Positions 2,952 to 28,510 of a DNA stretch of 64,000 bases are shown here, in pieces. Origin of the DNA: Deltaproteobacteria bacterium (GTDB taxonomy: Bacteria; Desulfobacterota; Desulfobulbia; Desulfobulbales; VMSU01); assembly GCA_024275235.1 (NCBI GenBank), contig JAJRZN010000012.1, forward strand, positions 5,279 through 69,278. Reading direction: 5' to 3'. The translations under genes and the position numbers were made by a program. How positions within the stretch are numbered: the first letter of the stretch is position 1; every line of letters starts with the position of its first letter. The notes below the pieces were generated by a model. The model searched no databases and was not told the DNA's origin. It worked only from the letters and a program-made list of their open reading frames with translations.

Positions 2952-5900
2952 CGTGTTAAACCTGATAACTGTTTGCCCCGCAGAAGATTATCCAGCCGCT
3001 CCACCAGCTCCGCCCCCGGTTTATCAGCATATATGCCATGTCCGGGGGCCTCCACCCCGCGCAGAAAAAGATATAAGACCCCGCCCACATCCCGTTCATA
3101 GCTGTAATCCGGCAGCCGGGATTTAAGCAGACGATGCATGGCCACGGTATAAAGCGTGTACTGCAAATCGTAACGATGCTCCAGCATGGCTCCAACCATA
3201 TTTTCATTATTATAGGCAGCGGCAGCGGCACCGAGATAATTTGATTTGTAATCCAGAACAAAATAACGGCCCTGATAGCAGAACAAAAGATCAATAAAAC
3301 CTTTAAGCATGCCGTTTATCAGACCTTTGGTCAGGAGCGGCCGGGAACGGCCGGGAATAACCCCGGCCCTGATTTCAGCGTCAAAGGCCGTAAGATCAAG
3401 ATCATTAACGGGAAACATAAACTCAAGCTCGGCCTGCAGGGCATCCGGCCGCAGGTCAGCCAGGGCGCCGTTCCCGCCCCCGCACCCCGGAATAACAGGA
3501 GCACTAAGCAGAACACCAAGCCAGTCGGCCAAAATCCCGCCCCATTGCTGCCAGTTCCGCCGCCGACAGCGCTTATCAATCTCCTCTTCAAGACGTTCCC
3601 GGCTGCCGGCAGTCCCGGCAAAATCCTGGGCCGCCCATTCCAGCAGGTCGTGCAGGAAGGTACCAGCCGCCGGGCCTTTGGGGAAAGCGGCGATAGAGGT
3701 GAGTTGATTACCCCCCTCAGCCCCGGCGCTCAGCCGTATTTCCCCGCTTTCTTCCTCTATGAGCGAGCGGGGAAAATCTGGGGCCGCCTCCATACTTCCA
3801 CCCTGTCCCGCGCTTCCACGCAGAATGGCGCTGTAACTGGTAATCCGCCAGGTATGGAAAATTTTCCCTCTGAATTTACGAGCCCCGGCGAGCCCGGCCT
3901 TAATCTCCGGCGGCCGGTATGGGGCCTGATTGGCGACAGGCAGGGGCATAATATCCAAATCAGAGCAGTCACCCCACATCTCATCAAACAGCCCCGGCAG
4001 TTCAGGCAGGCTGATCTCCCGGCCGCCGGACAGCAGATAGCCCAGGGCGGAGTGGTGCAGACAGGAGACATCACCCTTCCTGTTGCTCCGCCCCATAACC
4101 CCCACTCCCAGCCAGCAGGCATGTTTAGCCCTGGTCAGGGCCACATACAGCAGCCTCAGGTCCTCGGCCAGACGTTCACGATCGGCAGCAGCCGCGTCTT
4201 TGTCATCAGGCACCAGGGCCAAATGCTCCCGGCCGTCGGCGTCACGATAGGAAAACGGGCCGTCTTTAACCTTCAGCAAGCGGGTGTTACAGATAAAAGG
4301 CAGAAAAACCAGTCCGTATTCCAGCCCTTTAGCCTTATGAATAGTAACCACTTTAACCAGATCTTCATCACTCTCCAGGCGAATAATTTCCTCATCGGCC
4401 GCGGTGAGAGAGGAATCGTTAATTTTAACCGTCAGCCAGCGGATAAGGGCCTGCTCTCCCTCAAGAGAAACAGCCGCCTCCTGCAAAAGCTCCGAGATAT
4501 GAAAGATATTGGTTAATATCCGTTCAGCGCCCCGGGCCGTGAGATTACGGGCCACCCCAAAGTCACGGAACAGGGTACGCAGCATGGTAAGCACCCCCCG
4601 CCGCTGCCATATATCCCGGTAACGGCGAAAGCGCTCCGCCTCCAACTCCCATTGAGCGCTGTCTTCATTGAGCCTGTCAAGCCAGGCAAAGGGACGCTCA
4701 AGGAGAGACACCGCCAGGGCCGCCTTCAACAGCCGTTCCCGCTCCGGCATTGCACAGGCCCGCAGAAGATAAAGAATATCACAGGCCTCCCGCCCCTTGA
4801 ATACCGAATCCTTATCCGAAAGATAGACGGAAAGCACCCGCCGCTGCCGCAGAGCCGCGCGAATTGCCCTGGCCTCTTCGATATCCCTGACCAGAATGGC
4901 AATATCCGCCGGCCGCAGCGGCCGCTGACTGCCATCCTTACTGATAAACCGGGCCCTGGAAGTAAGCGCCAGATTAAGAAGCCGGACAATCTCAGACGCC
5001 GCCGCCGCGGCCATACGCCCCATATAGCCCTCCGGGCCGTTCTTTTTCACCGGAGCCTCCTGATCCAGCAGCCATATTTTGACGCCCTCCACCACTTCAT
5101 CCTCCACCAGCAGAGACTCATCACGCCCCCGGGCCTCAAGCCGCGGGCCGGGAATTTCATTTCCAAAGAGAAAAGAACCGCCGCTATGCCGTCTTCCAGC
5201 CGCGAAGATACGGTTCACCGCCGCCACCGCCGCCGCCGTGGAACGATAATTAGTCCCCATGGTATAAAGACCGGCGGCATCATGCCGGGCCTGGAGATAG
5301 GTATGAATATCAGCCCCCCGGAAACTGTAGATGGCCTGTTTAGGATCACCAATCATCAACAGGGCTGATTCAGCGGGGCGGAATATCCGGCTGAATATCC
5401 CGTACTGCACGGGATCGGTATCCTGAAACTCATCAATCATCACCACCGGAAACTGCCGGCCAATGATCCGGGCCAGACGACCGCCGCCCTCCGCTCGCAG
5501 GGTCCGGTACAGGTTATGAAGGAGATCGTCAAATCCTATTCTGGAGCGCCGCTCCTTCTCCGCCTCAAGACGCCGGCGGATATAGCGGACTGCATGGGGG
5601 AAAAAGGCGGTTTTGAGGTCAAGACGGGCCAGTTCATGCCACAGCACATCGAGACCGGCATAGGCGGGATGTTCCGGAGTGCGGCCATTTTTGGCAGTAC
5701 CGGCGCTCAAGGTACTCTGGGATAATTTTTCCAGGGCCTTAGGGCCGGGCAGAGTGCCGTCCGCGACCCAGACCTGGATCTCAGCAATATATTTTTCCAG
5801 GCTGCCTGCCCTGTATTTATTGCCGTTTAAATCTTTGGCTGCCCGTGCCTGCCGCAATTTATCAAGGGCTGCCATTAAATCTCCGGCCCAGAGGGAACGG

Positions 5901-6643
5901 GCAGCGGCAATGGCCTGCTGCCGCTTCTTAAGCACCAGGGCAATGTCCGATTCAGGGAGCGGAAGGGCAAGAGCAAACCAGGGCTTCAGCTTTTTCAATA
6001 ATTCACCGGGAGTGGAACAGCCGCAGGCCGCAATCAAATCGGCAAGCTCCCCGGCCGGCAGGGCGTAGAGGTGTGAACGCCAGTAGTCGCGGGCCGCCTC
6101 CATCATCAATTCATCTTCATCACAATCCAGATCAAGATCAAAGAGGGAACCGCTGTCAAAGGCATGCTGACGAAGCATACGCTGGCACCAGGCATGAATG
6201 GTATGAATAGCCGCCTCATCCATCCACTGGGCGGCCCGCTCCAGAAACCGGGCCTGCCGGGGCCGCTCCTCCTCGGCGTATGCCGCCCGCAGACCGCGCA
6301 GAAAATCATCACCCTCACCCACACCCCGAAAAAACGCCGCCCCCTCAACGAGACGGCGGCGTATTCTCTCCCGCAGCTCTTCGGTGGCGGCATTAGTGAA
6401 GGTAACCACCAGAATTTCCGGCGGCATCAACCGCCGGACAGCGGCATTCGCCCCCCCATGCCCCAGAATCAACCGCAGATAGAGAGCGGCAATGGTATAG
6501 GTTTTACCAGTACCGGCTCCGGCCTCAATAAGACGAATACCGTTCAGGGGCAGAGTAAGGTTATCAAGTGTAAATAGAGGACAGACCACGATTAATTGCG
6601 ATTTATTGATTGTATATTTAAATCCATCACCATTAATGGACAT
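2948..6643 (-). CDS. recB: exodeoxyribonuclease V beta subunit RecB (UvrD-type helicase plus C-terminal nuclease)
   Basis: 1231 aa. The N-terminus reads LPLNGIRLIEAGAGTGKTYTI (RecB Walker A context). It has UvrD-like helicase motifs (VMIDEFQDTDPVQ) and a C-terminal PD-(D/E)XK-like segment (GFIDLLFCYQGRYFVLDYKSN). Confidence 0.9.
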   Translation of the reverse strand: MSINGDGFKYTINKSQLIVVCPLFTLDNLTLPLNGIRLIEAGAGTGKTYTIAALYLRLILGHGGANAAVRRLMPPEILVVTFTNAATEELRERIRRRLVEGAAFFRGVGEGDDFLRGLRAAYAEEERPRQARFLERAAQWMDEAAIHTIHAWCQRMLRQHAFDSGSLFDLDLDCDEDELMMEAARDYWRSHLYALPAGELADLIAACGCSTPGELLKKLKPWFALALPLPESDIALVLKKRQQAIAAARSLWAGDLMAALDKLRQARAAKDLNGNKYRAGSLEKYIAEIQVWVADGTLPGPKALEKLSQSTLSAGTAKNGRTPEHPAYAGLDVLWHELARLDLKTAFFPHAVRYIRRRLEAEKERRSRIGFDDLLHNLYRTLRAEGGGRLARIIGRQFPVVMIDEFQDTDPVQYGIFSRIFRPAESALLMIGDPKQAIYSFRGADIHTYLQARHDAAGLYTMGTNYRSTAAAVAAVNRIFAAGRRHSGGSFLFGNEIPGPRLEARGRDESLLVEDEVVEGVKIWLLDQEAPVKKNGPEGYMGRMAAAAASEIVRLLNLALTSRARFISKDGSQRPLRPADIAILVRDIEEARAIRAALRQRRVLSVYLSDKDSVFKGREACDILYLLRACAMPERERLLKAALAVSLLERPFAWLDRLNEDSAQWELEAERFRRYRDIWQRRGVLTMLRTLFRDFGVARNLTARGAERILTNIFHISELLQEAAVSLEGEQALIRWLTVKINDSSLTAADEEIIRLESDEDLVKVVTIHKAKGLEYGLVFLPFICNTRLLKVKDGPFSYRDADGREHLALVPDDKDAAAADRERLAEDLRLLYVALTRAKHACWLGVGVMGRSNRKGDVSCLHHSALGYLLSGGREISLPELPGLFDEMWGDCSDLDIMPLPVANQAPYRPPEIKAGLAGARKFRGKIFHTWRITSYSAILRGSAGQGGSMEAAPDFPRSLIEEESGEIRLSAGAEGGNQLTSIAAFPKGPAAGTFLHDLLEWAAQDFAGTAGSRERLEEEIDKRCRRRNWQQWGGILADWLGVLLSAPVIPGCGGGNGALADLRPDALQAELEFMFPVNDLDLTAFDAEIRAGVIPGRSRPLLTKGLINGMLKGFIDLLFCYQGRYFVLDYKSNYLGAAAAAYNNENMVGAMLEHRYDLQYTLYTVAMHRLLKSRLPDYSYERDVGGVLYLFLRGVEAPGHGIYADKPGAELVERLDNLLRGKQLSGLTR

Positions 6644-6732
6644 ATTTGGTAACTATTCAACAGCCCCTCATTTAGGCCCGCTCCGGCCTCGCCCTGCCAT
6701 GTTTTTTACACCAGGGCCATAATAAAAACAAT

Positions 6733-9700
6733 TCAGCTCAAAGAACCAAGAGCCATATTCACCAGCGGCCCGTAAATCATGTCTGCCAGCACTGTAAATC
6801 CCGGCTCCGGGCCGCCCGTAAGCGCCTCAAAGTCGACATAACTCCGGCTGCTGTAAAGATCATAATCCCGTTCCCCCCGGTTGAAGGAATCTCCGTCATA
6901 GACTTTCCGGGCGGCGGCAAGTCTTTTTTCGGCCCCGCCCTGACTTGTTACCCAGGTCAAGGCCGTTTTAAGGCTTAAAGGCAGGGGCAGACGCAGGGCA
7001 AGCAGCCAGTATTCCATCAGCCCGGCAAGCTCCTGCCGCGCCTTTACTTCCGGCAGAGGGGGCAGTTCAATATTTTTATCAGGGCCGACAAGATAGCTGT
7101 ACAGTTCAATTCCCGCGGCACAGGCCGCGAGATGCCTCACCCAGAGAGAAATCATTCGCCTGTAACATCCGGTTTTATCACTGCCGCCCTCTTTATAAGA
7201 AAATTCCCAGCGAGCCAGAGGCCCGGTGTTTTCATCCCGCCGCCGCAAACCGCTCAGCCAGTCTTCCAGCCGTTGTTCCCGCCCGCCGGGCAGCAGGGAA
7301 AGACAAATTTCCCGATCTCCGGCGGCCAACGGCCATTGAACCATTAATTTCTCTTCATTGGCAAGAATCAGACATATCGTCTCACGCAGCCGCGCTGCCG
7401 TCAGCTCTCCCAAACCCGCCGGCGGCAGCTTACCGGCCCGGCGCAGGGCCGCGGTTCTCTCTACCAGCACCCTGTCCCTGTCCCCAGGCTCTGCGGCCAA
7501 AGCCGAAGCTAACAGTTCATTACTGAAAGAATAGACAGCAAGGGCATCCAGACTGAAGGGTTCGCTGTAATCGGCCGAAGCCGCGGGTTCATCAAAATAA
7601 ACCCCCAAACGATAATTATAAAAGACCCGTACGGGGCTTTTAAGCAGGGTAATAAGCTGGCGGCAGTCAATAGCGGCAGAAGAAGTGACGCCGGCCAGGG
7701 CTTTACCGCCCCCCTGAGCCTGTTTGTTAACCATATAAATATCAGACCACTCCCCGGCATAGGTAAAAAAATCGTTATCGCCGGAAAAATATAACCGGCT
7801 GAAGGGCTGAAGAGGATGCAGCATGGTCAGCCGGGATAAGAGATCCGCCTCCCGGTCAGATTCGGCCGTCCGCCAGCCCGCGGCAAGATAATCGCGCAAC
7901 TGCCCCACCAGCACTGACGGCGCCCGGCTGCTGTTATCTCTGGCGTTACGCCCTGTATAACTGATATAAAGCCGCTCCCGGGCGGATAAAAGGGCCTCAA
8001 GAAAGAGATAACGGTCATCCTCACGCCGGGAGCGGTCACCGGGCCGATAATTGGAAGCCGCCGCCATAAGATCAAAATCAGGGGCCGGATAATGGCGTGG
8101 ATAATCACCATCATTCATCCCCAGCAGGCAGACAACCTTGAAGGGAATGGCCCGCATGGGCATCAAGGTACAAAAATTCACCATCCCGGCCAGAAAACGC
8201 TGAGAAATGGACGATTGTTTAAGGGCCGCAAGCAGCATATCGGCCACCACCGTCAAAGGGAGCTCATGATTAAAACCGGCCGCCTGGCAGTCATCCAGCC
8301 ATTGTGCCAGCAGATCTTCCAGGCTCTGCTCAAATACAATATCCTCACTGAGGCTGAACTGAAAAAAATCAGCCGTCAGGTTCCTGATCCGCTCCCCCCA
8401 TTCAGCGGGAACCGCCGAACGGCGCAGAATACGCCAATGATGTTCCAGCATCTCAAGCATCCGGGCCAGTTTACCAGCCAGTTCGGCCTCCAGACCGCCG
8501 ACCCCGGCATAGGGTTCAATATCGTGCCAGACCGGGCTGTCACCCACGGCATAACCAAGAAGCATCCGTCTGAGGCCGAAGCGCCAGGAGTTCTCCTCAA
8601 AGGCCGAAGGCAGATCCAGGGACTGACGCTGTTCGGCGTCCAACCCCCAGCGCACTCCGGCGCCGATGAGCCATTCCTCAAGGATGGGCAGATCGTTTTC
8701 ACTTATGGCAAAACGCGCCCGACAGGCCGGCACCTCAAGAAGATCCATAACATCGCCGACGGTGAAACGTGATTGAGGTAAATGAAGAAGCGTGTCAAGG
8801 GCCGTCAGAACCTGAGCCCCGCCCCCTCCCGGACTGTCGGCGATGGAAAAGGGAATATGACGGGAATCATCAGCCGCAAGAGAAAATACCGCCTCAATAT
8901 AGGGGGCGTAAGCCTCCACATCGGGCATCATGACAATAATATCCCGCGGCCGTAATTCCGGCTGCCTCTCGAAGAGGGAGAGCAGCCAGTCGTGCAAAAT
9001 CTCCATCTCCCGCTGCCGGCTGCAGGCAAGCTGAAAGATAATTGAATCGTCAGCCGCAGCAAGTACCGTTTTCCGATCAGGGTCGGGCAGGGGCGTCAAG
9101 TCAAGAATCCCCTGCTGCACCTGCTGAAGCAGGTCGGCATTTTCCGAAACAGCAAAATCACTGAAGAGATCAATCTCGGAAAAATTATGGCGGTAGGAAT
9201 CCGGACGATCATAGCCGTAAAGCAGGCCGATATAATCCCGGCCCTGCTTGCCCCAGGCCGCCAGCAGTGGATTTACATGCTGATGGAGAAGATCCGGAGC
9301 CGGATCAGGCGGCATATCCTTGCGATGATGACGGGGGGCTTTCATGGGCAGCAGATCCCGGTCTTCGATGATGTCAGCCCAGTAATGACGGCAGGGATTA
9401 TGAACAAAGATGAGGATCTGGCAATATTTCGCCAGACCGTGCAGAGCCTCTAAAAACTGCCGGGGCATGGAGCTGATGCCAAAAACAATAACCCGCCTGG
9501 GCAGCAGTTCCGGCCGCGAGCCACCCGTCGAGACAGCCCGCAGAAAACGCTGATGCAGGGCGGCCCGGTGGCCCTGCCGTTCCGCCGCCGGAACATCATC
9601 CAGCAGCCGCCGCCATAATTCAGCCTGCCAGACCTGCTCCGCGGGCAGAGGCACCATCCCGCGCGGCCCGTCCAGACGGTTCATCCCTCTAGCCCAGTCG

Positions 9701-10170
9701 GCCAGCCAGTCCGCCCGATATACCTGATACTGATCGTAAAGATCGGCCAACCGACAGGCCAGTTGATAATGCTTACGGAAATCATTATCCGCCTTTAAAA
9801 ACCTGGCGAAAGCACTAAAAGTTTCTTCCTGGCAGAGAACCGGCAGCAGACGCAGCAGACGCCAGAGCAATCTGGATTTATCATAGGGAGAGGCGGGCGG
9901 CACCACCTCGCCACCCAGCACGGCCCGGTAAGCCGCCCACAGGAATCGGGCCGGTAACAGTATCTCCACGGCGGCGCAGATGCCGCTCCCCTCGTCGGCG
10001 GCCAGGGCCAGCTTCAGCCACTGGGCCATACCGTTACTCTGAACGATGAAAACTTCAGACTCCAGCGGACGGAGCGGATGGCTGCCTGTCCAGCGAATCA
10101 CAAGCTCCCGCAAATCTTCCAGGCGGTTAGAATGAATTATTGACAGACCGGGGCTTAATTCTTTATCCAT
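6733..10170 (-). CDS. recC: exodeoxyribonuclease V gamma subunit RecC
   Basis: 1145 aa. The N-terminus (IIHSNRLEDLRELV...FIVQSNGMAQWLKLALA) is characteristic of RecC. It lies directly upstream of recB and recD. Confidence 0.9.
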   Translation of the reverse strand: MDKELSPGLSIIHSNRLEDLRELVIRWTGSHPLRPLESEVFIVQSNGMAQWLKLALAADEGSGICAAVEILLPARFLWAAYRAVLGGEVVPPASPYDKSRLLWRLLRLLPVLCQEETFSAFARFLKADNDFRKHYQLACRLADLYDQYQVYRADWLADWARGMNRLDGPRGMVPLPAEQVWQAELWRRLLDDVPAAERQGHRAALHQRFLRAVSTGGSRPELLPRRVIVFGISSMPRQFLEALHGLAKYCQILIFVHNPCRHYWADIIEDRDLLPMKAPRHHRKDMPPDPAPDLLHQHVNPLLAAWGKQGRDYIGLLYGYDRPDSYRHNFSEIDLFSDFAVSENADLLQQVQQGILDLTPLPDPDRKTVLAAADDSIIFQLACSRQREMEILHDWLLSLFERQPELRPRDIIVMMPDVEAYAPYIEAVFSLAADDSRHIPFSIADSPGGGGAQVLTALDTLLHLPQSRFTVGDVMDLLEVPACRARFAISENDLPILEEWLIGAGVRWGLDAEQRQSLDLPSAFEENSWRFGLRRMLLGYAVGDSPVWHDIEPYAGVGGLEAELAGKLARMLEMLEHHWRILRRSAVPAEWGERIRNLTADFFQFSLSEDIVFEQSLEDLLAQWLDDCQAAGFNHELPLTVVADMLLAALKQSSISQRFLAGMVNFCTLMPMRAIPFKVVCLLGMNDGDYPRHYPAPDFDLMAAASNYRPGDRSRREDDRYLFLEALLSARERLYISYTGRNARDNSSRAPSVLVGQLRDYLAAGWRTAESDREADLLSRLTMLHPLQPFSRLYFSGDNDFFTYAGEWSDIYMVNKQAQGGGKALAGVTSSAAIDCRQLITLLKSPVRVFYNYRLGVYFDEPAASADYSEPFSLDALAVYSFSNELLASALAAEPGDRDRVLVERTAALRRAGKLPPAGLGELTAARLRETICLILANEEKLMVQWPLAAGDREICLSLLPGGREQRLEDWLSGLRRRDENTGPLARWEFSYKEGGSDKTGCYRRMISLWVRHLAACAAGIELYSYLVGPDKNIELPPLPEVKARQELAGLMEYWLLALRLPLPLSLKTALTWVTSQGGAEKRLAAARKVYDGDSFNRGERDYDLYSSRSYVDFEALTGGPEPGFTVLADMIYGPLVNMALGSLS

Positions 10171-11310: not shown

Positions 11311-11912
11311 TATTTATTTTGCAGATCAGAGAGATGACAGAGATCGTTCCAGTTAATAATTACCCGGTTTTCATGTTCATACCCCAAAATACTTAAAGAG
11401 GCTGTACCAAGCATTAACAACCTGGCGGCATTGGGCGGCAAACCAAGCCAGCGGGCCGCAATCACCCGCAGCATATGGGCATGAGCAAAGATTAAAGAAT
11501 CGCCGTCAACAGCCGCCACTCTCGCAATAACAATATCGGCCCGCTCTGCCACCTGCGCAAGTGTTTCTCCACCAGGGGGGTCGCCGCTCCAAATCGTCCA
11601 GCATGGCTGCTCGCTGCGGATATCCCGCGTAGTTCGCCCCTCATAGAGCCCATAATCCCATTCCTGTAAATCATCGGTAAATTCAGCCCGCTCTCCATAG
11701 CCCGCAAGCCGGCAGGTTTCGACAGCACGTTGGAGAGGGCTTGAAAGAACCATGCTGAACGAATGAGCGGCCAGCCTGACGGCCAAGGCTTCAGCCTGCA
11801 TAATTCCCCTGTTTGTGAGAGGTATATCACTTCTCCCGGTATGCCGCCCCATTACGGCCCACTCTGTCTCACCGTGACGCACCAGCCATATTTTCTGTTT
11901 AGTGTTAATCAT
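11310..11912 (-). CDS. histidine phosphatase family protein (phosphoglycerate-mutase-like)
   Basis: It has the RHGETEW catalytic motif 10 residues after Met at 11912 (MINTKQKIWLVRHGETEW). The longer ORF reaching 11990 reads through a CRISPR-like repeat and is not credible. Confidence 0.75.
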   Translation of the reverse strand: MINTKQKIWLVRHGETEWAVMGRHTGRSDIPLTNRGIMQAEALAVRLAAHSFSMVLSSPLQRAVETCRLAGYGERAEFTDDLQEWDYGLYEGRTTRDIRSEQPCWTIWSGDPPGGETLAQVAERADIVIARVAAVDGDSLIFAHAHMLRVIAARWLGLPPNAARLLMLGTASLSILGYEHENRVIINWNDLCHLSDLQNK

Positions 11913-11923
11913 AATTGTATTTT

Positions 11924-11955
11924 GTTTCAATTCGCGCCCCCGCATGGGGGGCAAA
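11924..11955 (-). repeat. orphan degenerate type I-C CRISPR repeat (psi-repeat)
   Basis: gtttcaattcgcgcccccgcatggggggcaaa compared with the array repeat gtttcaatccacgccccccgcatggggggcgac. The stem-loop and the ATTGAAAC end (minus-strand sense) are retained. It has the same polarity as the array, about 0.87 kb beyond it. Confidence 0.75.
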
Positions 11956-12022
11956 TCTCTCCGAAACTTGCCCCAATGTATGGAGAACATTTATACAGTT
12001 TTTGTATGTAACTTGCAAACAA

Positions 12023-12051
12023 CGGTTCATCCCCGCGGGTGTAGGGAACAT
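12023..12051 (-). repeat. isolated type I-E-like CRISPR repeat (29 nt)
   Basis: cggttcatccccgcgggtgtagggaacat. In minus-strand sense it ends ...CGGGGATGAACCG, close to the E. coli K-12 I-E repeat end ...CGGGGATAAACCG. It has a CCCCGC/N4/G-rich quasi-palindrome. Confidence 0.6.
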
Positions 12052-12108
12052 ATCGACAAGGGTTGGGATCATGCGCCGGGGGCCTCAGTAACAAAGGAGG
12101 TCAATAAG

Positions 12109-12657
12109 ATGGCGGCCAAGACCCAACAATGGGACTATACCATTGCCAAGGCATATATGCGGAGTGTACCGACTGGGCGGCGTGACGCCTTTGCCAAATC
12201 CTACCAGTCGCTACCTTCTGTTGCCGATGATATACGACGCTACGCCAGGCGGGCACTTGATAACAAAACCGCCGCCGGGATGCCGCCCTACAACAAGACC
12301 ATGGGGCTGCTCACCGGCAAGGACGCGGCCAGGGTTAAGGAGCTGACCGGCCGGGATGTGGGGTTATATGACTACGCACTCGATCCCAGCAGTATTGGAC
12401 ATATCAGGAGGCAGCACGGCGAAGCCGCCGGGGAGCTTGCCAGGGGCCAGCGCTTAGTGACCGCATCTGACTACTCGGCATTGCCGGGGATATTGAACGC
12501 CCCGGACTTAGAGGAATACGGCGTCTTGTCGGATGTCGGCCATCCGGTGGTGAGATATAAAAAGAAGATTGACGGGGAGTTATATACCACCGTTTTTGAA
12601 ATACGAAAAAAGAGAAGAATGCTGGTCTTGCAGAGTCTGTGGATAAAACGGCCCTGA
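12109..12657 (+). CDS. free-standing nuclease-toxin-like protein (PBECR-type Barnase/EndoU/RelE-like RNase fold suspected)
   Basis: AAGGAGG lies 8 nt upstream of the ATG. It has 182 codons. The motif pattern LDPSSIGHIRRQHG...VTASDYSALPGILNAPD...VVRYKKKIDGELYTTVFEIRKKRRMLVLQSLWIK resembles PBECR domains of phage/ICE polyvalent proteins. This assignment is from memory and has not been searched. Confidence 0.5.
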   Translation: MAAKTQQWDYTIAKAYMRSVPTGRRDAFAKSYQSLPSVADDIRRYARRALDNKTAAGMPPYNKTMGLLTGKDAARVKELTGRDVGLYDYALDPSSIGHIRRQHGEAAGELARGQRLVTASDYSALPGILNAPDLEEYGVLSDVGHPVVRYKKKIDGELYTTVFEIRKKRRMLVLQSLWIKRP

Positions 12658-12780
12658 TTTGTCCCCAACCTCAACGTCCGAAACGGCTTCGCGGTATGAA
12701 TGCGACGGCACAATGCCCAAATCAGGAACCAGATAAACATTATAGCAATGAAAACCATAAAAATCAACGATCAGGGAATA

Positions 12781-12801
12781 CGGTTCGTCCCCACGGGTGT
12801 G
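12781..12801 (-). repeat. truncated type I-E-like repeat fused to the terminal I-C repeat
   Basis: cggttcgtccccacgggtgtg matches the first 21 nt of the 12023-12051 element (2 mismatches). It runs directly into the degenerate I-C repeat. Confidence 0.55.
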
Positions 12802-15038
12802 TTACTGACACCCCCGCATAGGGGGCAACCATTGCAGACAGCGGAACAGGTAAAATGCAGTATGTTTCAATCCACGCCCCCCGCATGGGGGGCGACGTAC
12901 GAGCAACGGTGCTGCCGGCATGATGGGTCGTTTCAATCCACGCCCCCCGCATGGGGGGCGACTAATCCTATCGTTTTTTGCCGTCCGCCCTGCCAGTTTC
13001 AATCCACGCCCCCCGCATGGGGGGCGACGGCTGCAGTCCGACATCGAGCATTTTAAAGACAGTTTCAATCCACGCCCCCCGCATGGGGGGCGACGACGGA
13101 GTTTCCCCGGAGACGGCTAAACTGTATGAGTTTCAATCCACGCCCCCCGCATGGGGGGCGACACTAAAGGTGATATAATATGTCCGCATATAAAGTAGTT
13201 TCAATCCACGCCCCCCGCATGGGGGGCGACGTATGACAACAATGTAGACATCTCCTGTATCCCGTTTCAATCCACGCCCCCCGCATGGGGGGCGACGAAT
13301 AACCCCCAAGATGATGGACGACAAGATTAGTGTTTCAATCCACGCCCCCCGCATGGGGGGCGACATCCAAACTCAGTCGGCTTGGCACTATCATACCATG
13401 TTTCAATCCACGCCCCCCGCATGGGGGGCGACCAGGGTTAAGTTGGTTTTTGTCACCAATTAAAATGTTTCAATCCACGCCCCCCGCATGGGGGGCGACC
13501 TAATTGTGGCGGGGTGGTAGAGGAGACCGATGATGTTTCAATCCACGCCCCCCGCATGGGGGGCGACAACTGTAAATATTCTCGTTGTCGATCAAACAAA
13601 ATGTTTCAATCCACGCCCCCCGCATGGGGGGCGACTGCGGTATGTTTTGTTTTGCGTCATGCCAATTTTGTTTCAATCCACGCCCCCCGCATGGGGGGCG
13701 ACTTGGTTGACAAAATAGGTGATCCTGATAGCATCGTTTCAATCCACGCCCCCCGCATGGGGGGCGACGGTGATCTATTTTAATTTAGAGGTAACTGGTT
13801 ATGTTTCAATCCACGCCCCCCGCATGGGGGGCGACAGGCGTGATAACCTTGGCCTCTCTGCTATGTTTGTTTCAATCCACGCCCCCCGCATGGGGGGCGA
13901 CGGCACGGCGGGCTGGTTATCTCAAACGTTGTACGGTTTCAATCCACGCCCCCCGCATGGGGGGCGACTGAGTAAAAAAAATGGTTGGGTGCCGATAGAT
14001 AAGTTTCAATCCACGCCCCCCGCATGGGGGGCGACTTCCCGCCGATATTTATCATACCAGCAGGGAGATTGTTTCAATCCACGCCCCCCGCATGGGGGGC
14101 GACCGTGGTTTTCTTGTTAATGCCATATTTTTCTCCTGTTTCAATCCACGCCCCCCGCATGGGGGGCGACTGTATGCGCTGGGAGCAGGTGCGGGGATGT
14201 GCTGTTTCAATCCACGCCCCCCGCATGGGGGGCGACTATATGTCACCAGGGGATCTGGTAGCAGCTATATGTTTCAATCCACGCCCCCCGCATGGGGGGC
14301 GACCAAAAGCCCCCAGGTCGGCTGCGGTTTTTGAGTGTTTCAATCCACGCCCCCCGCATGGGGGGCGACTGATCCGGCTAAATACGTGCCGGTTGAGACA
14401 TTTGTTTCAATCCACGCCCCCCGCATGGGGGGCGACGCAACGAGCTGATCTATGGCGTTGACGACAGGAAGTTTCAATCCACGCCCCCCGCATGGGGGGC
14501 GACGAAATAGGCCGTCTGCTCGGCAAAGGGGAGCTTGTTTCAATCCACGCCCCCCGCATGGGGGGCGACTCTTTCCTTGTGGGCAGGCGGCCCACTGAAT
14601 TCGTTTCAATCCACGCCCCCCGCATGGGGGGCGACAACGGAGCGAATGTCGGTTCGCGGTGTGCGAACCTGTTTCAATCCACGCCCCCCGCATGGGGGGC
14701 GACACTCAAAGAAATTAGCGTTGAGGGTAAAGTAAAAGGTTTCAATCCACGCCCCCCGCATGGGGGGCGACATGATGTGGAGCTGCTTTTTGCTGTTGTT
14801 GCTGTTTCAATCCACGCCCCCCGCATGGGGGGCGACCGCAGTAGCTTTGATTTGCACAGTGGCGGCAAATGTTTCAATCCACGCCCCCCGCATGGGGGGC
14901 GACCTCGGTAACATATGTTGGGATTGACACCGGCGGGTTTCAATCCACGCCCCCCGCATGGGGGGCGACGTTGCCGAGACAGTTACTGCCCCGGCGTTTG
15001 TTGTCGTTTCAATCCACGCCCCCCGCATGGGGGGCGAC
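12797..15038 (-). CRISPR. type I-C CRISPR array: 33 identical 33-nt repeats plus 1 degenerate terminal repeat, 33 spacers of 32-36 nt
   Basis: The repeat on the plus strand is gtttcaatccacgccccccgcatggggggcgac. In transcribed sense it is GTCGCCCCCCATGCGGGGGGCGTGGATTGAAAC (8-bp GC stem, 4-nt loop, ATTGAAAC tail typical of I-C). The first perfect repeat is 12864-12896 and the last is 15006-15038. Period is 65-69 nt. The degenerate terminal repeat is 12797-12829. cas2 lies on the 15-kb side, so that side is leader-proximal. Confidence 0.97.
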
Positions 15039-15458: not shown

Positions 15459-15749
15459 CTATATCAACAATAACCCTTCCTGCTCCACCCCTCCTTTTGC
15501 CCCCACATGCTCCACCCGCCGCTGCCAGTTTGAGCCGAGAAAATAAAAACGCAGGCTATCGGTTTTTTGATTAATTTCGTCCACCAGTTTTTGCCGCATA
15601 ACCGCCCACTGAGCTGGATCAACAATGCACTCAAAGACAGAGAATTGCACCCTTTGGCCATAATCCTTACAGGTCTTGGCAACTCTGCGTAACCGGCGTC
15701 TGCCGGCCTTATCCATTGTGGAAACATCATAGCTCACCAACACAAACAT
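15459..15749 (-). CDS. cas2: CRISPR-associated endoribonuclease Cas2
   Basis: 96 aa. MFVLVSYDVS...RVQFSVFEC is the typical Cas2 ferredoxin-fold signature. It is adjacent to cas1 and the array. Confidence 0.95.
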   Translation of the reverse strand: MFVLVSYDVSTMDKAGRRRLRRVAKTCKDYGQRVQFSVFECIVDPAQWAVMRQKLVDEINQKTDSLRFYFLGSNWQRRVEHVGAKGGVEQEGLLLI

Positions 15750-15758
15750 AACTCCCTC

Positions 15759-16790
15759 CTATTGCCAGCAGAAAACTGGATAACCGTCAATATCGCCCCG
15801 AATATACCTGGCCAGCAACAAGGCTTGAGTATGAAACAAGAGGCCGACGGGCATCTTCTCCCGTAAAAACGGATGGGTGATTATATCCTGCTTCCTTTTC
15901 TGGTAGGCCACAAGCAGCGTCTTGCGGGTATCGTCGCTCATAATAACCGCCCCGCCCGCCGCCTTCTTAAAACCCTTGCGGTTAACCTGCCCCAGGTTAA
16001 TCAACGATAAGACCAGGCGGTCAGCAACATAGGGGCGGAACTCCTCCATCATGTCAAGTGCCAGACTTGGCCGCCCCGGCCGATCACGGTGCAGAAAGCC
16101 CACCGCCGGATCGAGGCCGACACATTCAAGGGCTGAACGTATATCGTGCATCAACAACATATAGGTGAAAGACAAGAGACTGTTCACCAGATCCAGCGGT
16201 GGACGCCGACTCCGTTCATGAAAGCTGAAATCATCCTTCTGGGCAACAATGAGATGATCAAACACCCTGAAATAAACCTGAGCCGCCTCACCCTCAAATC
16301 CCCGCATCTTATCAAGGGGGATGTCTATTTTAACGTGCATGAGAATGGACGAAATACGATCCGCCGCCGCCTTCACCGCATCGCCGTCCACCTTATCAAG
16401 ATGATCCCGTAATACCCGCCGTAACACCTTGCGGCAGTTGGAAACTTTGCCGATAATAACCGGCCTTGCCATGTGTGCTGACTGCCGCAAATCGTCCGCC
16501 CAGCGATATTGTTCCCGACGCAGCAAAACATTACCGGAAACCGGCCCCTGAACCCTGGCCAGAAAACGACCGTGTTCGGTGAGAAAACTGACGGTGACAT
16601 CCCGCTCGGCGCAAAATCCCATGAGGAATGGACTCATGGATACCTGTCCAAAACAAACAATACCATCCAGGGTGTGGACAGGTAGCTGCAGGCGGGTCTT
16701 TTTATCGACCCTAACCACCACAGTTTCACCTTCTTTGGCCAGATATGCGCCCTGAGTTGTCACAAAAAGGGTATTAAGATGTTTTTTCAT
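15759..16790 (-). CDS. cas1: CRISPR-associated endonuclease Cas1 (I-C type)
   Basis: 343 aa. It has the Cas1 pattern (LNTLFVTTQGAYL..., ...NSLLSFTYMLL..., ...DMMEEFRP...). Its start overlaps the cas4 stop (ATGA). Confidence 0.95.
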   Translation of the reverse strand: MKKHLNTLFVTTQGAYLAKEGETVVVRVDKKTRLQLPVHTLDGIVCFGQVSMSPFLMGFCAERDVTVSFLTEHGRFLARVQGPVSGNVLLRREQYRWADDLRQSAHMARPVIIGKVSNCRKVLRRVLRDHLDKVDGDAVKAAADRISSILMHVKIDIPLDKMRGFEGEAAQVYFRVFDHLIVAQKDDFSFHERSRRPPLDLVNSLLSFTYMLLMHDIRSALECVGLDPAVGFLHRDRPGRPSLALDMMEEFRPYVADRLVLSLINLGQVNRKGFKKAAGGAVIMSDDTRKTLLVAYQKRKQDIITHPFLREKMPVGLLFHTQALLLARYIRGDIDGYPVFCWQ

Positions 16791-17425
16791 AATGCCGCGG
16801 CCCTATTGAGATATTGTTCAACCCGCCGTTTTTTCTCCAGAGTTCTGGGCAGACAGATGTCCTTGAATGAGCAGGTATCACACTTCTTTGAATAGACCGG
16901 CGCAGGGGTCACGGCATTGTCAAAGAGCCGGTGCAGACGCAGAGCCGTATCCTCTGTCTGCCGCCGCAGTTCTCCGGTGAACTCCACCTTCTGCCGCCGC
17001 CGTTTTTTACCGTAGAACAACGCCCCTTGGGGAATGATAAGATCAAGCGTTTCTTCAAGACAGAGGGCCTGGGCGCAAAGCTGCACCTTGTCACAGTTAT
17101 CCTTTTTAGGCCGCCCCCGTTTATGCTCCACCGGAAAAGGAAGCCAGCGGGGATTACCCTCAGGCCGGCGGTGAAATTCAACCGCATCCGCCTTACCGAT
17201 AAGCCCAAGCCGCAGAGAGCGAAGGGGCAAGGCAAATTCAACCCGAATATCACCGTGCGACTCGCCACCGCTTCTATCTACCCGTTCGTGCATAATTCGC
17301 CCCTGGGCCGTAAAAAGATTTTCCACCCAAAGCTGTTCAATATGAATTAAGGCACATTGCCGTTCACAAAAGAGAAGATGCTGAAGCGCCGACAGGGGCA
17401 GAAGATCGTCTTCGTTATACATCAT
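16787..17425 (-). CDS. cas4: CRISPR-associated exonuclease Cas4
   Basis: 212 aa. It has an N-terminal Cys (LLFCERQCAL) plus a C-terminal CDTCSFKDIC cluster (four-Cys Fe-S pattern of Cas4) and a RecB-like nuclease core. Confidence 0.9.
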   Translation of the reverse strand: MMYNEDDLLPLSALQHLLFCERQCALIHIEQLWVENLFTAQGRIMHERVDRSGGESHGDIRVEFALPLRSLRLGLIGKADAVEFHRRPEGNPRWLPFPVEHKRGRPKKDNCDKVQLCAQALCLEETLDLIIPQGALFYGKKRRRQKVEFTGELRRQTEDTALRLHRLFDNAVTPAPVYSKKCDTCSFKDICLPRTLEKKRRVEQYLNRAAAL

Positions 17426-18408
17426 TCATCGGTGTTGGTGATTAAGTTGGCAATCAGCCGTATCAAAATATCCTTCTGGGCCGGATCGCTGGCCGCCGTG
17501 AGCAGAGTCAGGGCGACCAGGGCATTATCGGAAAATCGGCGTTCATCCAACCGGCCGTTTTTTTCAAGAAACAGGAGAAAGAGGAATGTAGCGATCCGCT
17601 TGTTCCCATCGCTGAAGGGGTGATCCTTGATGACAAAATAGAGAAGGTTCGCCGCCTTTTCCGCAACTCCGGGATAAAGATCATGGCCGCCGAAGGTCTG
17701 CTGAACAGCGCCAAGAATGCCCGCCAGACCTTCACCCCGCTCCTGGCCGAAAAGCTCGGTCGCTTAGCCCTTGCCAGACAGCTCTTTTTTCAATGAGGTG
17801 ATGGCGGATCGTGCTTCGGAAAGCTCAATAAGTACCTTGCTCGCTGCAACAGCCTTAGGAAGGGCAAGCGCGTCCTCATCATACTGCAAAAGAAGGTTCC
17901 AGGTTTTGGCATACCGGCTCACGATACGCAGAACGGCCCGGCCCTCGTCATTCAACAATTCATTGCTATCCAGGGTATTGGCAAGAAGCGACAGCACCTG
18001 CCGCATTTCCTCAGTTCCTTTTTCGGCAAGGCGTTTCTGATTGACGGTGAAGCCGCGCACGAGATGATCTTTCAACACGGAGGTGGCCCAGATGCGGAAC
18101 TGGGTGCCGCGTTTGGAATTTACCCTGTATCCGACAGAGATAATGGCATCCAAATTATAAAAATTTGTTCGATATGTTTTGCCGTCAGAGGCAGTATGTG
18201 CAAATTTTGCACATACTGCCTCTTTATCCAACTCGCCCGTTCGAAAAATATTATTAATATGCTTCGTCACAACACTTCGCTCCGTCCTGAAGACAGAGGC
18301 AATCTGTTTTTGTGTAAGCCATACAGTTTCATCTTTCAACTGCACGTCAATGGCCGAACTTCCGTCCTCAGACTGGTATAAAACAATTTCACCAAGATGA
18401 GCGTTCAT
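17422..18408 (-). pseudogene. RhuM-family protein with C-terminal Fic/Doc-like domain, interrupted by an in-frame TAA at 17764-17766
   Basis: The N-terminal part (from Met at 18408, MNAHLGEIVLYQSEDG...YRVNSKRGTQFRIWAT) is RhuM-like. The same frame continues after the TAA as ATELFGQERGEGL...DHPFSDGNKRIATFLF (HxFxDGNKR Doc/Fic motif) to a TGA at 17422 that overlaps the cas4 ATG. Confidence 0.75.
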
Positions 18409-18592
18409 ATTGAGATTCCTGTTAATTTCACGACCTTTTAAGTCGCTTGACACTTTCAGGCTCGGTCAGATAGTTTTCAGAACTTACCACTTTCCTGTTA
18501 GTTTCAAGCTCCAGATTAGTTCTGGCATCACCGGCAATTTTGCCACCCTTTCGGGCTGCTGTTTTATTTTAATCAAAGTCATTGGCATCCTT

Positions 18593-19252
18593 TTATCTGG
18601 CGATCTCAGTGGTGGCAGCCTCTCCCAGCATGGAGAAAATCGACTCAAGATCGGTCATGTGATCGCGCAGATTATGTCGTTTCAGGCCCTTAACTTTCTT
18701 ATATTCAGAGGGGGTGATGCCGAAGGTTGCTTTGGAAATCTCAGCGGTGAGAATAGCGTATTCAGGGTCTTCTTTTATGCCGCGTTTCTGCCATTCATCT
18801 GTCAACTCATCCCGAACGACAATACCACGCATCCATTTCTCTATCCAGGCATCGGAATAGCCCTTGGCACGGTAAATGGCTTTGGTGCGCTTGCTGGCCA
18901 GTTCCGGGTCTTCAATTTCCTGTACCCGCTCATAACCGACCTTGGCCAGCCAGCGTTTGAAGGGCTCTGCTTTGGGAGATGGAATGGATTGGATGATGCG
19001 GAAAAGGCCTTCGGTGTTGGCGCATAACATCCGCTGCACCCCGCCGGTAGTCTCAATGGGAAGGGTATGTACAATTTGTACCCACCCTTTAGCCAACTCC
19101 GGATCACGGCGTTTCATACGTTGGATATATTGCTTGGGGTCTTTCGAATCAATGAGTGCAAGCACCACATCCTGCACAACAAACCACCATTCCTCATTGT
19201 GCAGTATCCGACGGATTCCCTTGTTTTTAAAAACTACCAGTTTATTTTCCAT
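18593..19252 (-). CDS. Bro-N domain protein (phage antirepressor-like), copy 1
   Basis: MENKLVVFKNKGIRRILHNEEWWFVVQDVVLAL is a Bro-N signature. GGGGAGGA precedes the ATG at 19252. The start overlaps the fic stop by 11 nt. It is a paralogue of 27533-28372 (shared SPKAEPFKRWLAKVGYER core). Confidence 0.8.
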   Translation of the reverse strand: MENKLVVFKNKGIRRILHNEEWWFVVQDVVLALIDSKDPKQYIQRMKRRDPELAKGWVQIVHTLPIETTGGVQRMLCANTEGLFRIIQSIPSPKAEPFKRWLAKVGYERVQEIEDPELASKRTKAIYRAKGYSDAWIEKWMRGIVVRDELTDEWQKRGIKEDPEYAILTAEISKATFGITPSEYKKVKGLKRHNLRDHMTDLESIFSMLGEAATTEIAR

Positions 19253-20072: not shown

Positions 20073-20082
20073 ATAAAAATCC

Positions 20083-20934
20083 TCAAAAACCATCAATGAT
20101 TTCGGGTGGATCAATTTCTTTAACTGACTCAATAGAAATATTAACCCCGGAACTTTCCTCTATAATTTTTAAGCTTCGATGAACCTTAGCTGATGAAACT
20201 TTACCGTTGGGACATTTATGATCCCACCAGACAACCTTAAGAACCTCCATGCTTCCTTCTGGTCGTGCAGAGGATGCGTCATTTTCAAAAAGTTTCGGTA
20301 GAATGTCTTTTACGATTTTGGCATCGTCATCACTAAAACCTGTTTTAGAGGCAAGTTGCGGGTTCATGCTTCCAAAAAACGCATATGTCCCGTGATCCAC
20401 ACGATGCTTAATTCACATCGTATCAGAACTTTTTTTCTTTCCGTCACCCTCACCACTAACACTTTTGGTTATTTGTGTACTGGTTATATCCACCGGAGAT
20501 ATAGAAAACGCTGTATGAACTGAAACCGGCCCTCTAATTCCAATTGAGACTCCTGCGCCTTTTTTGTCGCCGGCATAGGCAAAGACTTGGCCAAAGGCTC
20601 TGACATCAAACCATTTTTCACAAACCGCATCAGCAATTTCTCTTGATGTTTTAGTATTATCAAATATTTTTTTCCCGCTAATATCTGTAGCCTTTTCAGC
20701 ACGTTCACGCAGACTATTGCATTCATCCAATTTATTGTCATCAGATTGTACAAAAATATCTTTACCCTTTTCCATAAGACGGTTCCGAATTTTCCGTTTG
20801 ATACATACATCAGAGACTTCTCCAATCCTGTCATAATTTGTCCGAGGGCGGTTTCCATTCAGGGGGTCACCATTTGGATTGGCATTTTTTACGGTGAAGA
20901 TTACAGCAAAATCAATTTTTTTCGTTAAGCTCAT
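20083..20934 (-). pseudogene. cas7: Cas7 (Csd2, type I-C backbone subunit) interrupted by an in-frame TGA at 20413-20415
   Basis: The start is at Met 20934 with AAGGAGA upstream. The N-terminal part reads FAVIFTVKNANPNGDP (Csd2 signature). The junction reads ...KKSSDTM*IKHRVDHGTYAFFGSMNPQLASKTGFSDDDA...FENDASSARPEGSMEV, which is continuous Csd2 family sequence in one frame. Confidence 0.85.
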
Positions 20935-21316
20935 CGTTTGTCTCCTTATTTGCATTATTTTCAGGATTAAAAGCTAACCGTTGGCAGTGAAAACCTAAAA
21001 GGAATTCCCCGGATAATGAACTGTCGGACGAATAACCTTCCACGTCGGTGAATAAACCATGAATCAAATCCATTTCCTTTTCATACTTATTGCTTCGACT
21101 CAATCTTGCCTTGTATGGGACAAGGGCTAATTCAATAGTTTTCCAGGTGCTACTTGGGCGTTCAGCAAACCTTTGCATCAATTTTGTTGCGCTTGTTTGT
21201 CTATTTTTACTGTTTTCACTTGCGACATAAAGCGCAGTTGATTCCAAACAATCCGCAACAGCCAACAAACGCCCGTACAAATAGTCCCTGGTCTTTCGTT
21301 CTCGTTCTAGTCCCAT
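20912..21316 (-). CDS. cas11: candidate internally translated small subunit Cas11c (in frame within the 3' end of cas8c)
   Basis: An in-frame ATG at 21314-21316 is preceded by AGGGAGGA at 7-8 nt (plus strand tcctccct, 21324-21331). It would give 134 aa (MGLERERKTRDYLYGRLLAVAD...). Type I-C systems are known to make Cas11 from an internal start in cas8c. Confidence 0.55.
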   Translation of the reverse strand: MGLERERKTRDYLYGRLLAVADCLESTALYVASENSKNRQTSATKLMQRFAERPSSTWKTIELALVPYKARLSRSNKYEKEMDLIHGLFTDVEGYSSDSSLSGEFLLGFHCQRLAFNPENNANKETNDELNEKN

Positions 21317-24041: not shown

Positions 24042-24051
24042 TCGGACCTCC

Positions 24052-27484: not shown

Positions 27485-27547
27485 TACACCCTAACACACC
27501 CCCTGGGTCATATAGTGACCCACCCCCCAAATTTATTTCATTTTTTT
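27485..27547. repeat. 63-bp direct repeat, copy A, containing palindrome TGGGTCA-N5-TGACCCA
   Basis: tacaccctaacacaccccctgggtcatatagtgacccaccccccaaatttatttcattttttt has 3 mismatches to copy B. It overlaps the 3' end and stop of bro-N copy 2. Confidence 0.8.
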
Positions 27548-28372: not shown

Positions 28373-28447
28373 AATAGTCCTTTTCCATATGTTAAAACCA
28401 ACGCATACGATCGTTGTCGTACCACTATGCCGCAGCATACCTTCTCA

Positions 28448-28510
28448 TACACCCTAACACACCCCCAGGGTCATATAGTGACCCACCCCCTAAATTTATT
28501 TTATTTTTTT
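28448..28510. repeat. 63-bp direct repeat, copy B
   Basis: tacaccctaacacacccccagggtcatatagtgacccaccccctaaatttattttattttttt overlaps the stop of the WYL gene and lies about 75-140 nt upstream of bro-N copy 2. Confidence 0.8.

Follow-up and report, generated by a model that had tools for sequence, protein, structure and literature searches.

A Mu-like phage head-gene fragment in the spacer position of a CRISPR array remnant: a probable oversized spacer, with counterparts in three other metagenomic arrays

The DNA studied here is a window of 64,000 nt (the whole stretch that was analysed: positions 5,279 to 69,278 of contig JAJRZN010000012.1, GenBank assembly GCA_024275235.1) from a Deltaproteobacteria bacterium of the order Desulfobulbales. 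It carries a type I-C CRISPR locus, consisting of an operon in the order cas2-cas1-cas4 ... cas7-cas8c-cas5c-cas3 (15459–26523) and an array that is read on the minus strand with its leader towards cas2 (15459). At the trailer end of the array, on the plus strand, lies an open reading frame (ORF) of 182 codons that an earlier, sequence-only reading had singled out as a possible CRISPR-guarded toxin gene. Its ATG is at 12109 and its stop codon at 12655–12657, and a Shine-Dalgarno (SD)-like run, AAGGAGG (12094–12100), ends 8 nt ahead of the ATG, just as that reading had described.

Residues 70–180 of the ORF product matched the Pfam family PF18812 (PBECR3) over profile positions 5–108 of 115 with an E-value of 3.7e-13 and a score of 49.8 bits (gathering cutoff 30 bits), confirming the PBECR-type C-terminal domain that had been recognised from the letters. 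This was the sole domain found with Pfam, Phage_Mu_F being absent, and comparison of the protein with PADLOC, PHROGs and NCBIfam gave no useful match. The conserved PBECR3 residues His98, His103, Glu109, Arg112 and Gln114 are retained; in an alignment of 90 sequences H103, E109, G113 and Q114 were invariant and H98 and R112 were conserved in at least 90%, and all of these residues are present in the window protein. By family, the ORF product would be a ribonuclease (RNase)-type domain, the RNase activity of PBECR3 being itself a prediction. A structure model based on the 90-sequence alignment had a predicted local distance difference test (pLDDT) score of 91.7 and consists of helices followed by a four-stranded C-terminal sheet; it supersedes a model from a 6-sequence alignment with a pLDDT of 53. 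No significant fold match to this model was found in the PDB (best E 0.076; RelE 4fxh_B, E 0.18; XendoU, E 0.78), and in BFVD it matched phage polyvalent proteins of 900–1170 aa with E-values of 3.6e-9 to 6e-4. Exact-protein look-ups with the ORF product, P0001, Cas2 and the histidine phosphatase returned zero matches.

Nucleotide alignment placed the ORF within a contiguous 729 bp piece of Mu-like phage DNA, which comprises 19 codons 5′ of the ATG, the ORF itself, a 90 nt intergenic element and 11 codons of a gpG gene. The window at 12052–12781 is 86.7% identical at the nucleotide level to positions 6001–6727 of phage contig VAPG01042172.1 (L031), and the same stretch is 74% identical to a metagenomic array contig described below (L003) and 69% identical to a prophage in a Desulfobulbia metagenome-assembled genome (MAG; L001). 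The ORF corresponds to the 3′ 47% of the gene for a MuF-PBECR3 minor head protein of approximately 415–430 aa in Mu-like phages. The parent gene in L031 is a 430-codon ORF, called as a 417 aa protein (P0008), and homology to P0008 starts at its residue 218. Identity of the ORF product is 82–84% to P0008 and P0007, and 58–84% across its closest relatives overall. In the protein alignment the similarity continues 5′ of the ATG, through IDKGWDHAPGASVTKEVNK, and in the phage gene the methionine of the ORF and most of its SD-like run correspond to internal codons (TKEVNKM in the window, ANEVSKM in L031). As homology to the phage gene extends 57 nt upstream of the ATG, up to a CRISPR repeat border at 12052, the ORF is a 5′-truncated gene fragment. 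Where the sequence-only reading called the gene free-standing it was therefore mistaken, and its fallback, a captured fragment of a mobile element, agrees with the evidence; it was right that no immunity-like ORF adjoins the gene and that the domain usually sits inside larger phage proteins, as both the polyvalent matches and the Phage_Mu_F+PBECR3 relatives attest.

Approximately 110 of the best 120 relatives are Phage_Mu_F+PBECR3 proteins of 405–427 aa that are annotated as phage minor head proteins. In the Mu-like phage loci compared, L001, L002 and L031 among them, the MuF-PBECR3 gene of the head module is preceded by the portal gene and followed by genes for gpG (Phage_tail_S), a Mu-type protease I and the major capsid protein. 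Among cultured phages, Rhodobacter phage RC1 and Rhodovulum phage RS1 have relatives of the protein, under the annotation ‘minor head protein and DNA pilot’. Both MuF-PBECR polyvalent proteins and MuF polymorphic-toxin head proteins have been described from temperate phages (Iyer et al. 2017, as cited in bioRxiv 10.64898/2026.08.28.747851; Jamet et al. 2017, PMC5576092). The window ORF is homologous over its full length to the C-terminal half of such proteins and keeps their PBECR3 residues, but it has neither the Phage_Mu_F domain nor the head module, and its gene is cut at a CRISPR repeat. Most MuF toxins of Jamet et al. (PMC5576092) are followed by a small immunity ORF, whereas in the phages considered here gpG comes next and there is no such ORF. 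The window holds no other Mu-like genes or Mu ends: terminase, portal and protease are all absent and gpG is reduced to 11 codons. A scan of a collection of genome contigs returned only two phage-type loci.

The resemblance to L031 (12052–12657 compared with 6001–6600) is mosaic: the first approximately 85 codons are highly divergent, with a synonymous divergence (dS) of 1.7, and the PBECR3 domain, intergenic element and gpG start are about 95% identical, with a dS of 0.09, which suggests intragenic recombination among Mu-like phages. From the stop codon to 12747 only 2 of 93 nt differ from L031, compared with about 15% in the coding part. The ratio of nonsynonymous to synonymous divergence (dN/dS) between the fragment and L031 is 0.245 overall and 0.46, from few changes, in the closely related domain part; phage-to-phage comparisons gave 0.21–0.23. 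Because the overall ratio lies near the phage-to-phage values and so few differences are found past the stop codon, the intactness of the ORF is no evidence of selection at this site.

Copies of the intergenic element between the MuF-PBECR3 and gpG genes were found in the window (12658–12747), L031 (6604–6645), L001 (10598–10687), L003 (771–860) and a further array contig, L038 (2443–2533). It contains a hairpin, TCG[C/T]G-GTATGAG-C[G/A]CGA, in which one pair (62:72) covaries fully, four sequences having CG and four UA, and an outer helix that includes several compensatory pairs. An Rfam search of the phage fragment including this element gave no match; the element may serve Mu-like phages as a regulatory RNA or as an anchor for recombination. 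Two variants of the gene itself were also noted. At 9880–10003 of L001 the MuF and PBECR3 parts are split by a stop codon (GWGCQ*) and approximately 110 nt that still encode a recognisable MuF-PBECR3 linker, so that the gene is either split or decaying within an otherwise complete prophage. Remnants with PBECR3 and gpG and without MuF occur outside arrays in L052 (3395–3425) and L053 (288–327 and 6570–6633), where they start directly after GGGGTCA...TGACCCC hairpins that look like the ends of transposons or miniature inverted-repeat transposable elements; we take the GGGGTC motif to be Tn3-like, and a 33 nt unit of L053 recurs 6.2 kb away.

On both sides of 12052–12780 the phage homology ends, to the base, at direct repeats of I-E-like sequence. 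The tentative assignment to type I-E was based on a 29 nt repeat (GTGTTCCCC...GGGGATGAACCG), 32 nt spacers and a 61 nt period, the label following what we take to be E. coli-type repeats. Matches to the I-E repeat at 18 or more of 29 positions occur at just 6 of 127,942 window positions, and the repeats at 12023–12051 and 11962–11990 lie exactly 32 nt apart. Since these repeats and their spacing are well beyond chance, the phage piece appears to fill a spacer slot in a three-repeat I-E remnant abutting the I-C trailer. Judged by its repeats, this remnant is a decayed array that has become fused to the trailer of the active-looking I-C array: its outermost repeat on that side (12781–12809) shares bases with the 3′ part of the terminal I-C repeat (12797–12829), the two forming a hybrid I-C/I-E repeat, and on the far side 5 nt separate the repeat at 11962–11990 from an I-C-like repeat (11924–11956), which lies upstream of a histidine phosphatase gene (His_Phos_1) at a distance of 11 nt from the likely start of that gene (11912). 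Rfam gave no CRISPR direct-repeat match for the L003 repeats or the I-E-like repeats. The sequence-only reading had placed the ORF between CRISPR-like repeats, two of them in 11956–12108. The bracketing and both repeats (11962–11990 and 12023–12051) are indeed present, but repeats of two kinds surround the ORF, and those that flank it directly and those counted upstream are I-E-like, unlike the I-C array.

The fragment carries no inverted repeats at its ends and is collinear with phage genes throughout, without a transposase or target-site duplication. It resembles a spacer in having direct repeats on both sides and in coming from a mobile element that the host has met; its length of 729 nt does not fit a ruler of 32–33 nt, which the neighbouring spacer of 32 nt obeys. 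None of the I-C spacers targets the fragment itself. Two of them, spacers 23 and 25, match L031 perfectly next to a TTC protospacer-adjacent motif (PAM), indicating that the host lineage meets and fights L031-type phages. Coordinates of these features are collected in Table 1.

Table 1. Repeats, spacers, phage-derived segments and the interrupted cas7 gene of the window.
Feature	Position	Strand	Remarks
I-C-like repeat, near full-length, degenerate	11924..11956	-	ATTTGCCCCCCATGCGGGGGCGCGAATTGAAAC; stem-loop and ATTGAAAC handle intact; gapped alignment to I-C consensus
Terminal repeat of I-E-like remnant, degenerate	11962..11990	-	18/29 identical to L003 repeat
Ordinary spacer of I-E-like remnant, 32 nt	11991..12022	-	‘Pseudo-spacer’ tested for CreA-like targets
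I-E-like repeat ATGTTCCCTACACCCGCGGGGATGAACCG	12023..12051	-	27/29 to L003, 26/29 to L038; PAM-distal border of the putative oversized spacer
Phage piece in spacer slot, 729 bp of contiguous Mu-like DNA	12052..12780	slot read on -, phage genes on +	Nucleotide alignment; homology stops at the repeat borders
Flagged ORF, 182 codons	12109..12657	+	With 12052-12108, last 201 codons of MuF-PBECR3 minor head protein gene
Phage intergenic element between MuF-PBECR3 and gpG genes	12658..12747	+	High conservation; hairpin with covarying pair
First 11 codons (MKTIKINDQGI) of gpG / Phage_tail_S gene	12748..12780	+	Cut by repeat
I-E-like repeat	12781..12809	-	21/29; last 21 nt good, first 8 nt degenerate
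Degenerate terminal repeat of I-C array	12797..12829	-	5′ 19 nt conserved, 3′ part replaced
Type I-C array, 33 identical repeats and 32 spacers	12864..15038	-	Oldest spacer additionally at 12830-12863
I-C spacer 23	14370..14403	-	34/34 to L031 protease I gene (8254-8287), TTC PAM
I-C spacer 25	14504..14536	-	33/33 to 5′ part of L031 MuF-PBECR3 gene (5386-5418), TTC PAM
I-C cas7 (csd2)	20083..20955	-	In-frame TGA at 20413-20415; both halves match Cas7

Overlapping pieces of the same phage region were found in spacer position in three more independent metagenome arrays (L003, L038/L039 and L051). L003 (JGI 3300011013) is a clean I-E-like array of 14 identical repeats and 32 nt spacers, in which a long spacer of 1309 nt between perfect repeats runs from inside MuF-PBECR3 to two codons short of the end of gpG. 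L038 (JGI 3300036763) has seven normal spacers, after which come two long ones (368 and 1105 nt), one more of normal length and then at least 584 nt of a PBECR3 fragment, Mu-like head modules being the source of all the long ones; L039, from a sister sample, has identical junctions with a few single nucleotide polymorphisms (SNPs) and one repeat-spacer unit fewer. In L051 (ENA ERZ1742330), covered approximately 4.7×, a fragment of 1107 nt or more comes after 23 repeats, and the position of L031 homologous to the start of this fragment is preceded by AAG. The borders differ in all cases. Relative to the array, the phage genes run antisense in two cases (the window and L003) and sense in the other two (L038 and L051); the L051 copy is without the methionine of the ORF and the L038 copy without the first approximately 64 codons. 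No such repeats occur at these positions in intact phage loci. The window fragment is closer to the free phage L031 (87% identity) than to the L003 fragment (74%; L003 and L031 share 72.5%), so the captures are independent, and a single ancient capture common to the window and L003 was ruled out on the same grounds.

Viral contigs with this repeat family had normal arrays or solitary repeats, with no additional long spacers. Single I-E-type repeats amid phage-like sequence were noted in three IMG/VR contigs (L041, 8569–8597; L044, 1408–1436; L048, 7194–7222); that of L041, which comes from the same sample series as L038 and L039, is intergenic. These solitary repeats resemble what we take to be units of the RNA anti-CRISPR kind.

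The junctions of the long spacers carry two signals. A G stands at −33 from the PAM-distal end in all four doubly bounded long spacers (joint probability 0.006); this is the only uniform offset within 25–45, and it is the position of the PAM-derived G in a normal unit. The opposite border looks different: the 29th repeat base before the spacer is G in 44 of 45 normal cases, and G, G, G, A, A and C in the six long ones (Fisher p 0.004). For the inferred terminal spacers, the full AAG PAM was found in one of four, the other three having GAG, CTG and CCG.

We consider it probable, with moderate confidence, that the window fragment is an oversized spacer derived from an untrimmed prespacer and now a silent relic of phage DNA rather than a host toxin gene. 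In such an event the I-E adaptation machinery would measure the non-PAM end of the prespacer and join it to the repeat normally, the DNA on the PAM side would be left untrimmed, and the long tail would then be integrated and joined at an arbitrary base, giving an oversized spacer with exact repeat borders. Trimming of the PAM end could have failed because three of the four inferred PAMs are not AAG. The start codon and the ribosome-binding-like run would be inherited internal codons, and the fragment would probably stay silent. Its RNase-type domain would owe its intact state solely to the short time since capture; a recent capture is suggested by the few differences past the stop codon and by a dN/dS that resembles phage-to-phage values. 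Type I-E acquisition with delayed trimming of the PAM end is known from the biochemistry of E. coli Cas1–Cas2. The long spacers share with that process the exact repeat borders, the G at the PAM-derived position counted from the PAM-distal border and the occurrence of either orientation relative to the phage genes; they differ in being 10–40 times the length of the ruler and in the arbitrary base at the PAM-proximal border. More tentatively, and with a good deal of doubt, the I-E machinery may occasionally install kilobase spacers anchored at one canonical protospacer, which then persist for long in natural arrays.

Several observations weigh against an oversized spacer. The reading frame is undamaged, its SD-like run is strong and every conserved residue is kept. 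I-E cas genes are absent from the window, and none were found beside a related array, L046, where the ORFs are without a Pfam match. The I-E remnant is bracketed by I-C repeats, with the hybrid repeat on one side and a near-complete one on the far side, an order of events that untrimmed integration does not explain. The array cases, all four of them, are known from assembled contigs of metagenomes or MAGs. The phage region recurs, two other long spacers of L038 also coming from the head module, for which accident is no explanation; since relatives were sought by PBECR3, the recurrence of the MuF-to-protease region is partly a matter of ascertainment. No earlier case is known to us in which an integrase with a 33 bp ruler produced kilobase spacers, and the literature searched had only long spacers that are mostly transposons.

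Two kinds of insertion in arrays are comparable. Long spacers of at least 100 nt in arrays of E. coli, P. aeruginosa and S. thermophilus are mostly inserted transposons (Kupczok et al. 2015, PMC4524480). They too put far more than 33 nt between neighbouring repeats in arrays that are normal otherwise, but the window insert is an internal piece of phage genes that ends at the repeat borders and lacks a transposase, inverted repeat or target duplication. Phage phiAP1.1 of S. pyogenes integrates as a whole prophage, site-specifically, into CRISPR repeats via a repeat-like attP (bioRxiv 10.1101/2020.10.09.333658). The outcome there is likewise phage DNA flanked by CRISPR repeats within an array, whereas the present fragments are arbitrary internal pieces of 0.4–1.3 kb with array-specific borders, and the intact phages have no repeat at these positions.

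An assembly chimera would account for the same contigs if ordinary I-E spacers matched a co-occurring Mu-like phage and the assembler had followed a path from a repeat through a spacer into the phage genome, and from there through a second spacer back into the array. We think this unlikely and keep it as a live rival because every case is a metagenome assembly: all are short-read metagenome or MAG contigs, L051 at its approximately 4.7× coverage among them, the host does carry spacers that match this phage group perfectly, and a genuine terminal spacer would also yield the G at −33 seen in the four long spacers. The condition of the window remnant is difficult to reconcile with such a path, its I-E repeats being decayed (27/29, 21/29 and 18/29), leaderless behind the I-C array and joined to a repeat of I-C type; a chimera here would need two old spacers, both perfect to a present-day phage and collinear. 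A path derived from the array would moreover keep the G that normally precedes a spacer, but the base before the long spacers of L038/L039 is A, A and C (A in L039). We infer that arrays of 14–23 repeats could be resolved only with k-mers longer than the 32–33 nt overlap between spacer and phage. Assemblies of two separate samples agree in the junctions while differing by SNPs and one spacer unit, and the cases come from four different data sources.

The same arrangement could have arisen in the cell by homologous recombination anchored in spacers, if two collinear spacers recombined with infecting phage DNA and the spacer-repeat-spacer unit was replaced by the intervening phage segment. Exact repeat borders, a contiguous fragment and the G at −33 would all follow, and recombination of phages with CRISPR loci has precedent in the literature; Varble et al. 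are said to have reported it. The normal G that this exchange predicts before every long spacer is lacking in L038/L039, the full AAG is found in only one of four inferred terminal spacers, and two co-oriented spacers within 0.4–1.3 kb would be required every time. We regard it as quite improbable.

A functional toxin is, in our judgement, highly improbable. According to this explanation the ORF would be a domesticated RNase toxin expressed from 12109, which either acts in abortive infection or is repressed by CRISPR, the upstream repeats and their 32 nt spacer serving as a CreA-like guide. The layout of known systems gives it some appeal. CreTA modules (PMC8501985, PMC9458426) have been joined by CrePA, in which a truncated phage KilAC domain is a protein toxin repressed by CreA and the I-F effector (bioRxiv 10.1101/2024.01.05.574328), so that a protein version of CreTA is already known and would not be new in itself. 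As in those modules, two degenerate repeats (11962–11990 and 12023–12051) around a sequence of about 30 nt, here 32 nt and placed 58–147 nt upstream of the ATG, stand beside a truncated phage-derived domain at a cas locus. The ORF is unbroken and has AAGGAGG, an ATG and the full set of conserved residues, its structure model is confident (pLDDT 91.7), and the dN/dS of the domain relative to L031 is below 1 (0.46).

The Cascade-repressed protein toxin that the sequence-only reading had envisaged did not survive closer comparison. The partial complementarity next to a PAM that it had suggested looking for was not found, neither the I-C spacers nor either of the pseudo-spacers having a PAM-flanked seed match beyond chance in 11900–12700: the best exact 5′ match of an I-C spacer to the ORF or its upstream region was 9 nt, without a TTC PAM and within random expectation, and the best non-self match of the I-E pseudo-spacer, which falls inside the ORF next to a GTT PAM, covers 9 of 10 seed positions, about 4 such matches being expected by chance, on our estimate, in the whole window. 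The pseudo-repeats are I-E-like and the resident cas operon and array are I-C, so that the repeat subtype is mismatched. The effector gene is broken by the TGA in cas7, possibly a sequencing error, and an addiction module would predict the opposite of a nonsense codon in cas7 beside an intact ORF. No sigma-70-like promoter was found upstream of the ORF on the plus strand; the sole promoter-like site lies on the minus strand (12767–12739), and about one is expected by chance. PADLOC and NCBIfam gave no match. There is also no conserved association in relatives, which are phage head genes, and the other array-borne copies vary in borders and orientation and may lack the start. The fragment, finally, carries flanks that would be useless to a toxin gene, namely the intergenic element and 11 gpG codons.

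An ordinary Mu-like prophage remnant decayed by deletions beside the arrays, its repeat-like borders being by-products of recombination between arrays, has parallels in the MuF-less remnants of L052 and L053, which lie outside arrays near a transposase, and in the rearranged trailer to which the hybrid repeat testifies, but we give it scarcely any credence, given that the fragment ends coincide to the base with direct I-E repeats here and likewise in three other arrays, and that the window is without other Mu-like genes or Mu ends.

Several other genes of the window deserve mention. The in-frame stop codon of cas7 (20413–20415) stands in the context DTM*IKHRVDHG; judging by the Csd2 consensus, the TGA was presumably GGA (Gly) originally. 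The I-C effector may thus be defective despite 33 perfect repeats, or the stop may be a sequencing error. Likewise recD (975–2951, minus strand) is split by an in-frame TAG at 2010–2012, in an apparent DEAS Walker B motif (VVD*ASM). Like the stop in cas7, it is most simply a G-to-T change; that 64 kb should contain two of them points either to genuine decay of genes or to a sequencing artefact of the damage type. A cell without RecD would, in addition, process the DNA ends that supply adaptation differently. A distance of approximately 2 kb, occupied by an alpha/beta hydrolase gene and a histidine phosphatase gene, separates the arrays from recC, recB and the split recD (975–10170). Within the cas operon, three extra genes are inserted between cas7 and cas4, encoding Fic/DOC (19242–20132), Bro-N (18593–19267) and RhuM-family (17764–18453) proteins, and upstream of cas3 are genes for a WYL/WCX-domain regulator (28501–29451) and a second Bro-N protein (27533–28438). 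WYL proteins often regulate CRISPR or defence loci.

The guarded-toxin model thus failed all the tests that were run, and the ORF is a piece of a phage head-protein gene. What remains is that four arrays from four separate data sources hold 0.4–1.3 kb pieces of one phage region exactly in spacer position, with junction bases that are unlike those of normal spacers and fit failed PAM-end trimming in I-E adaptation. Were the junctions false, they would represent a recurrent class of array-phage assembly chimera that gives rise to false ‘genes inside CRISPR arrays’ in MAGs. If they are real, spacer acquisition has an unusual variant that sets kilobase phage fragments exactly into spacer slots, here in four arrays: natural systems can then evade the ruler for spacer length, arrays can store long stretches of phage homology, and annotation tools that assume short spacers overlook such units. 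The stored homology may then serve as recombination bait, as a long RNA, antisense or sense, directed at the head-gene region in Mu-like phages, or as a supply from which new spacers are drawn.

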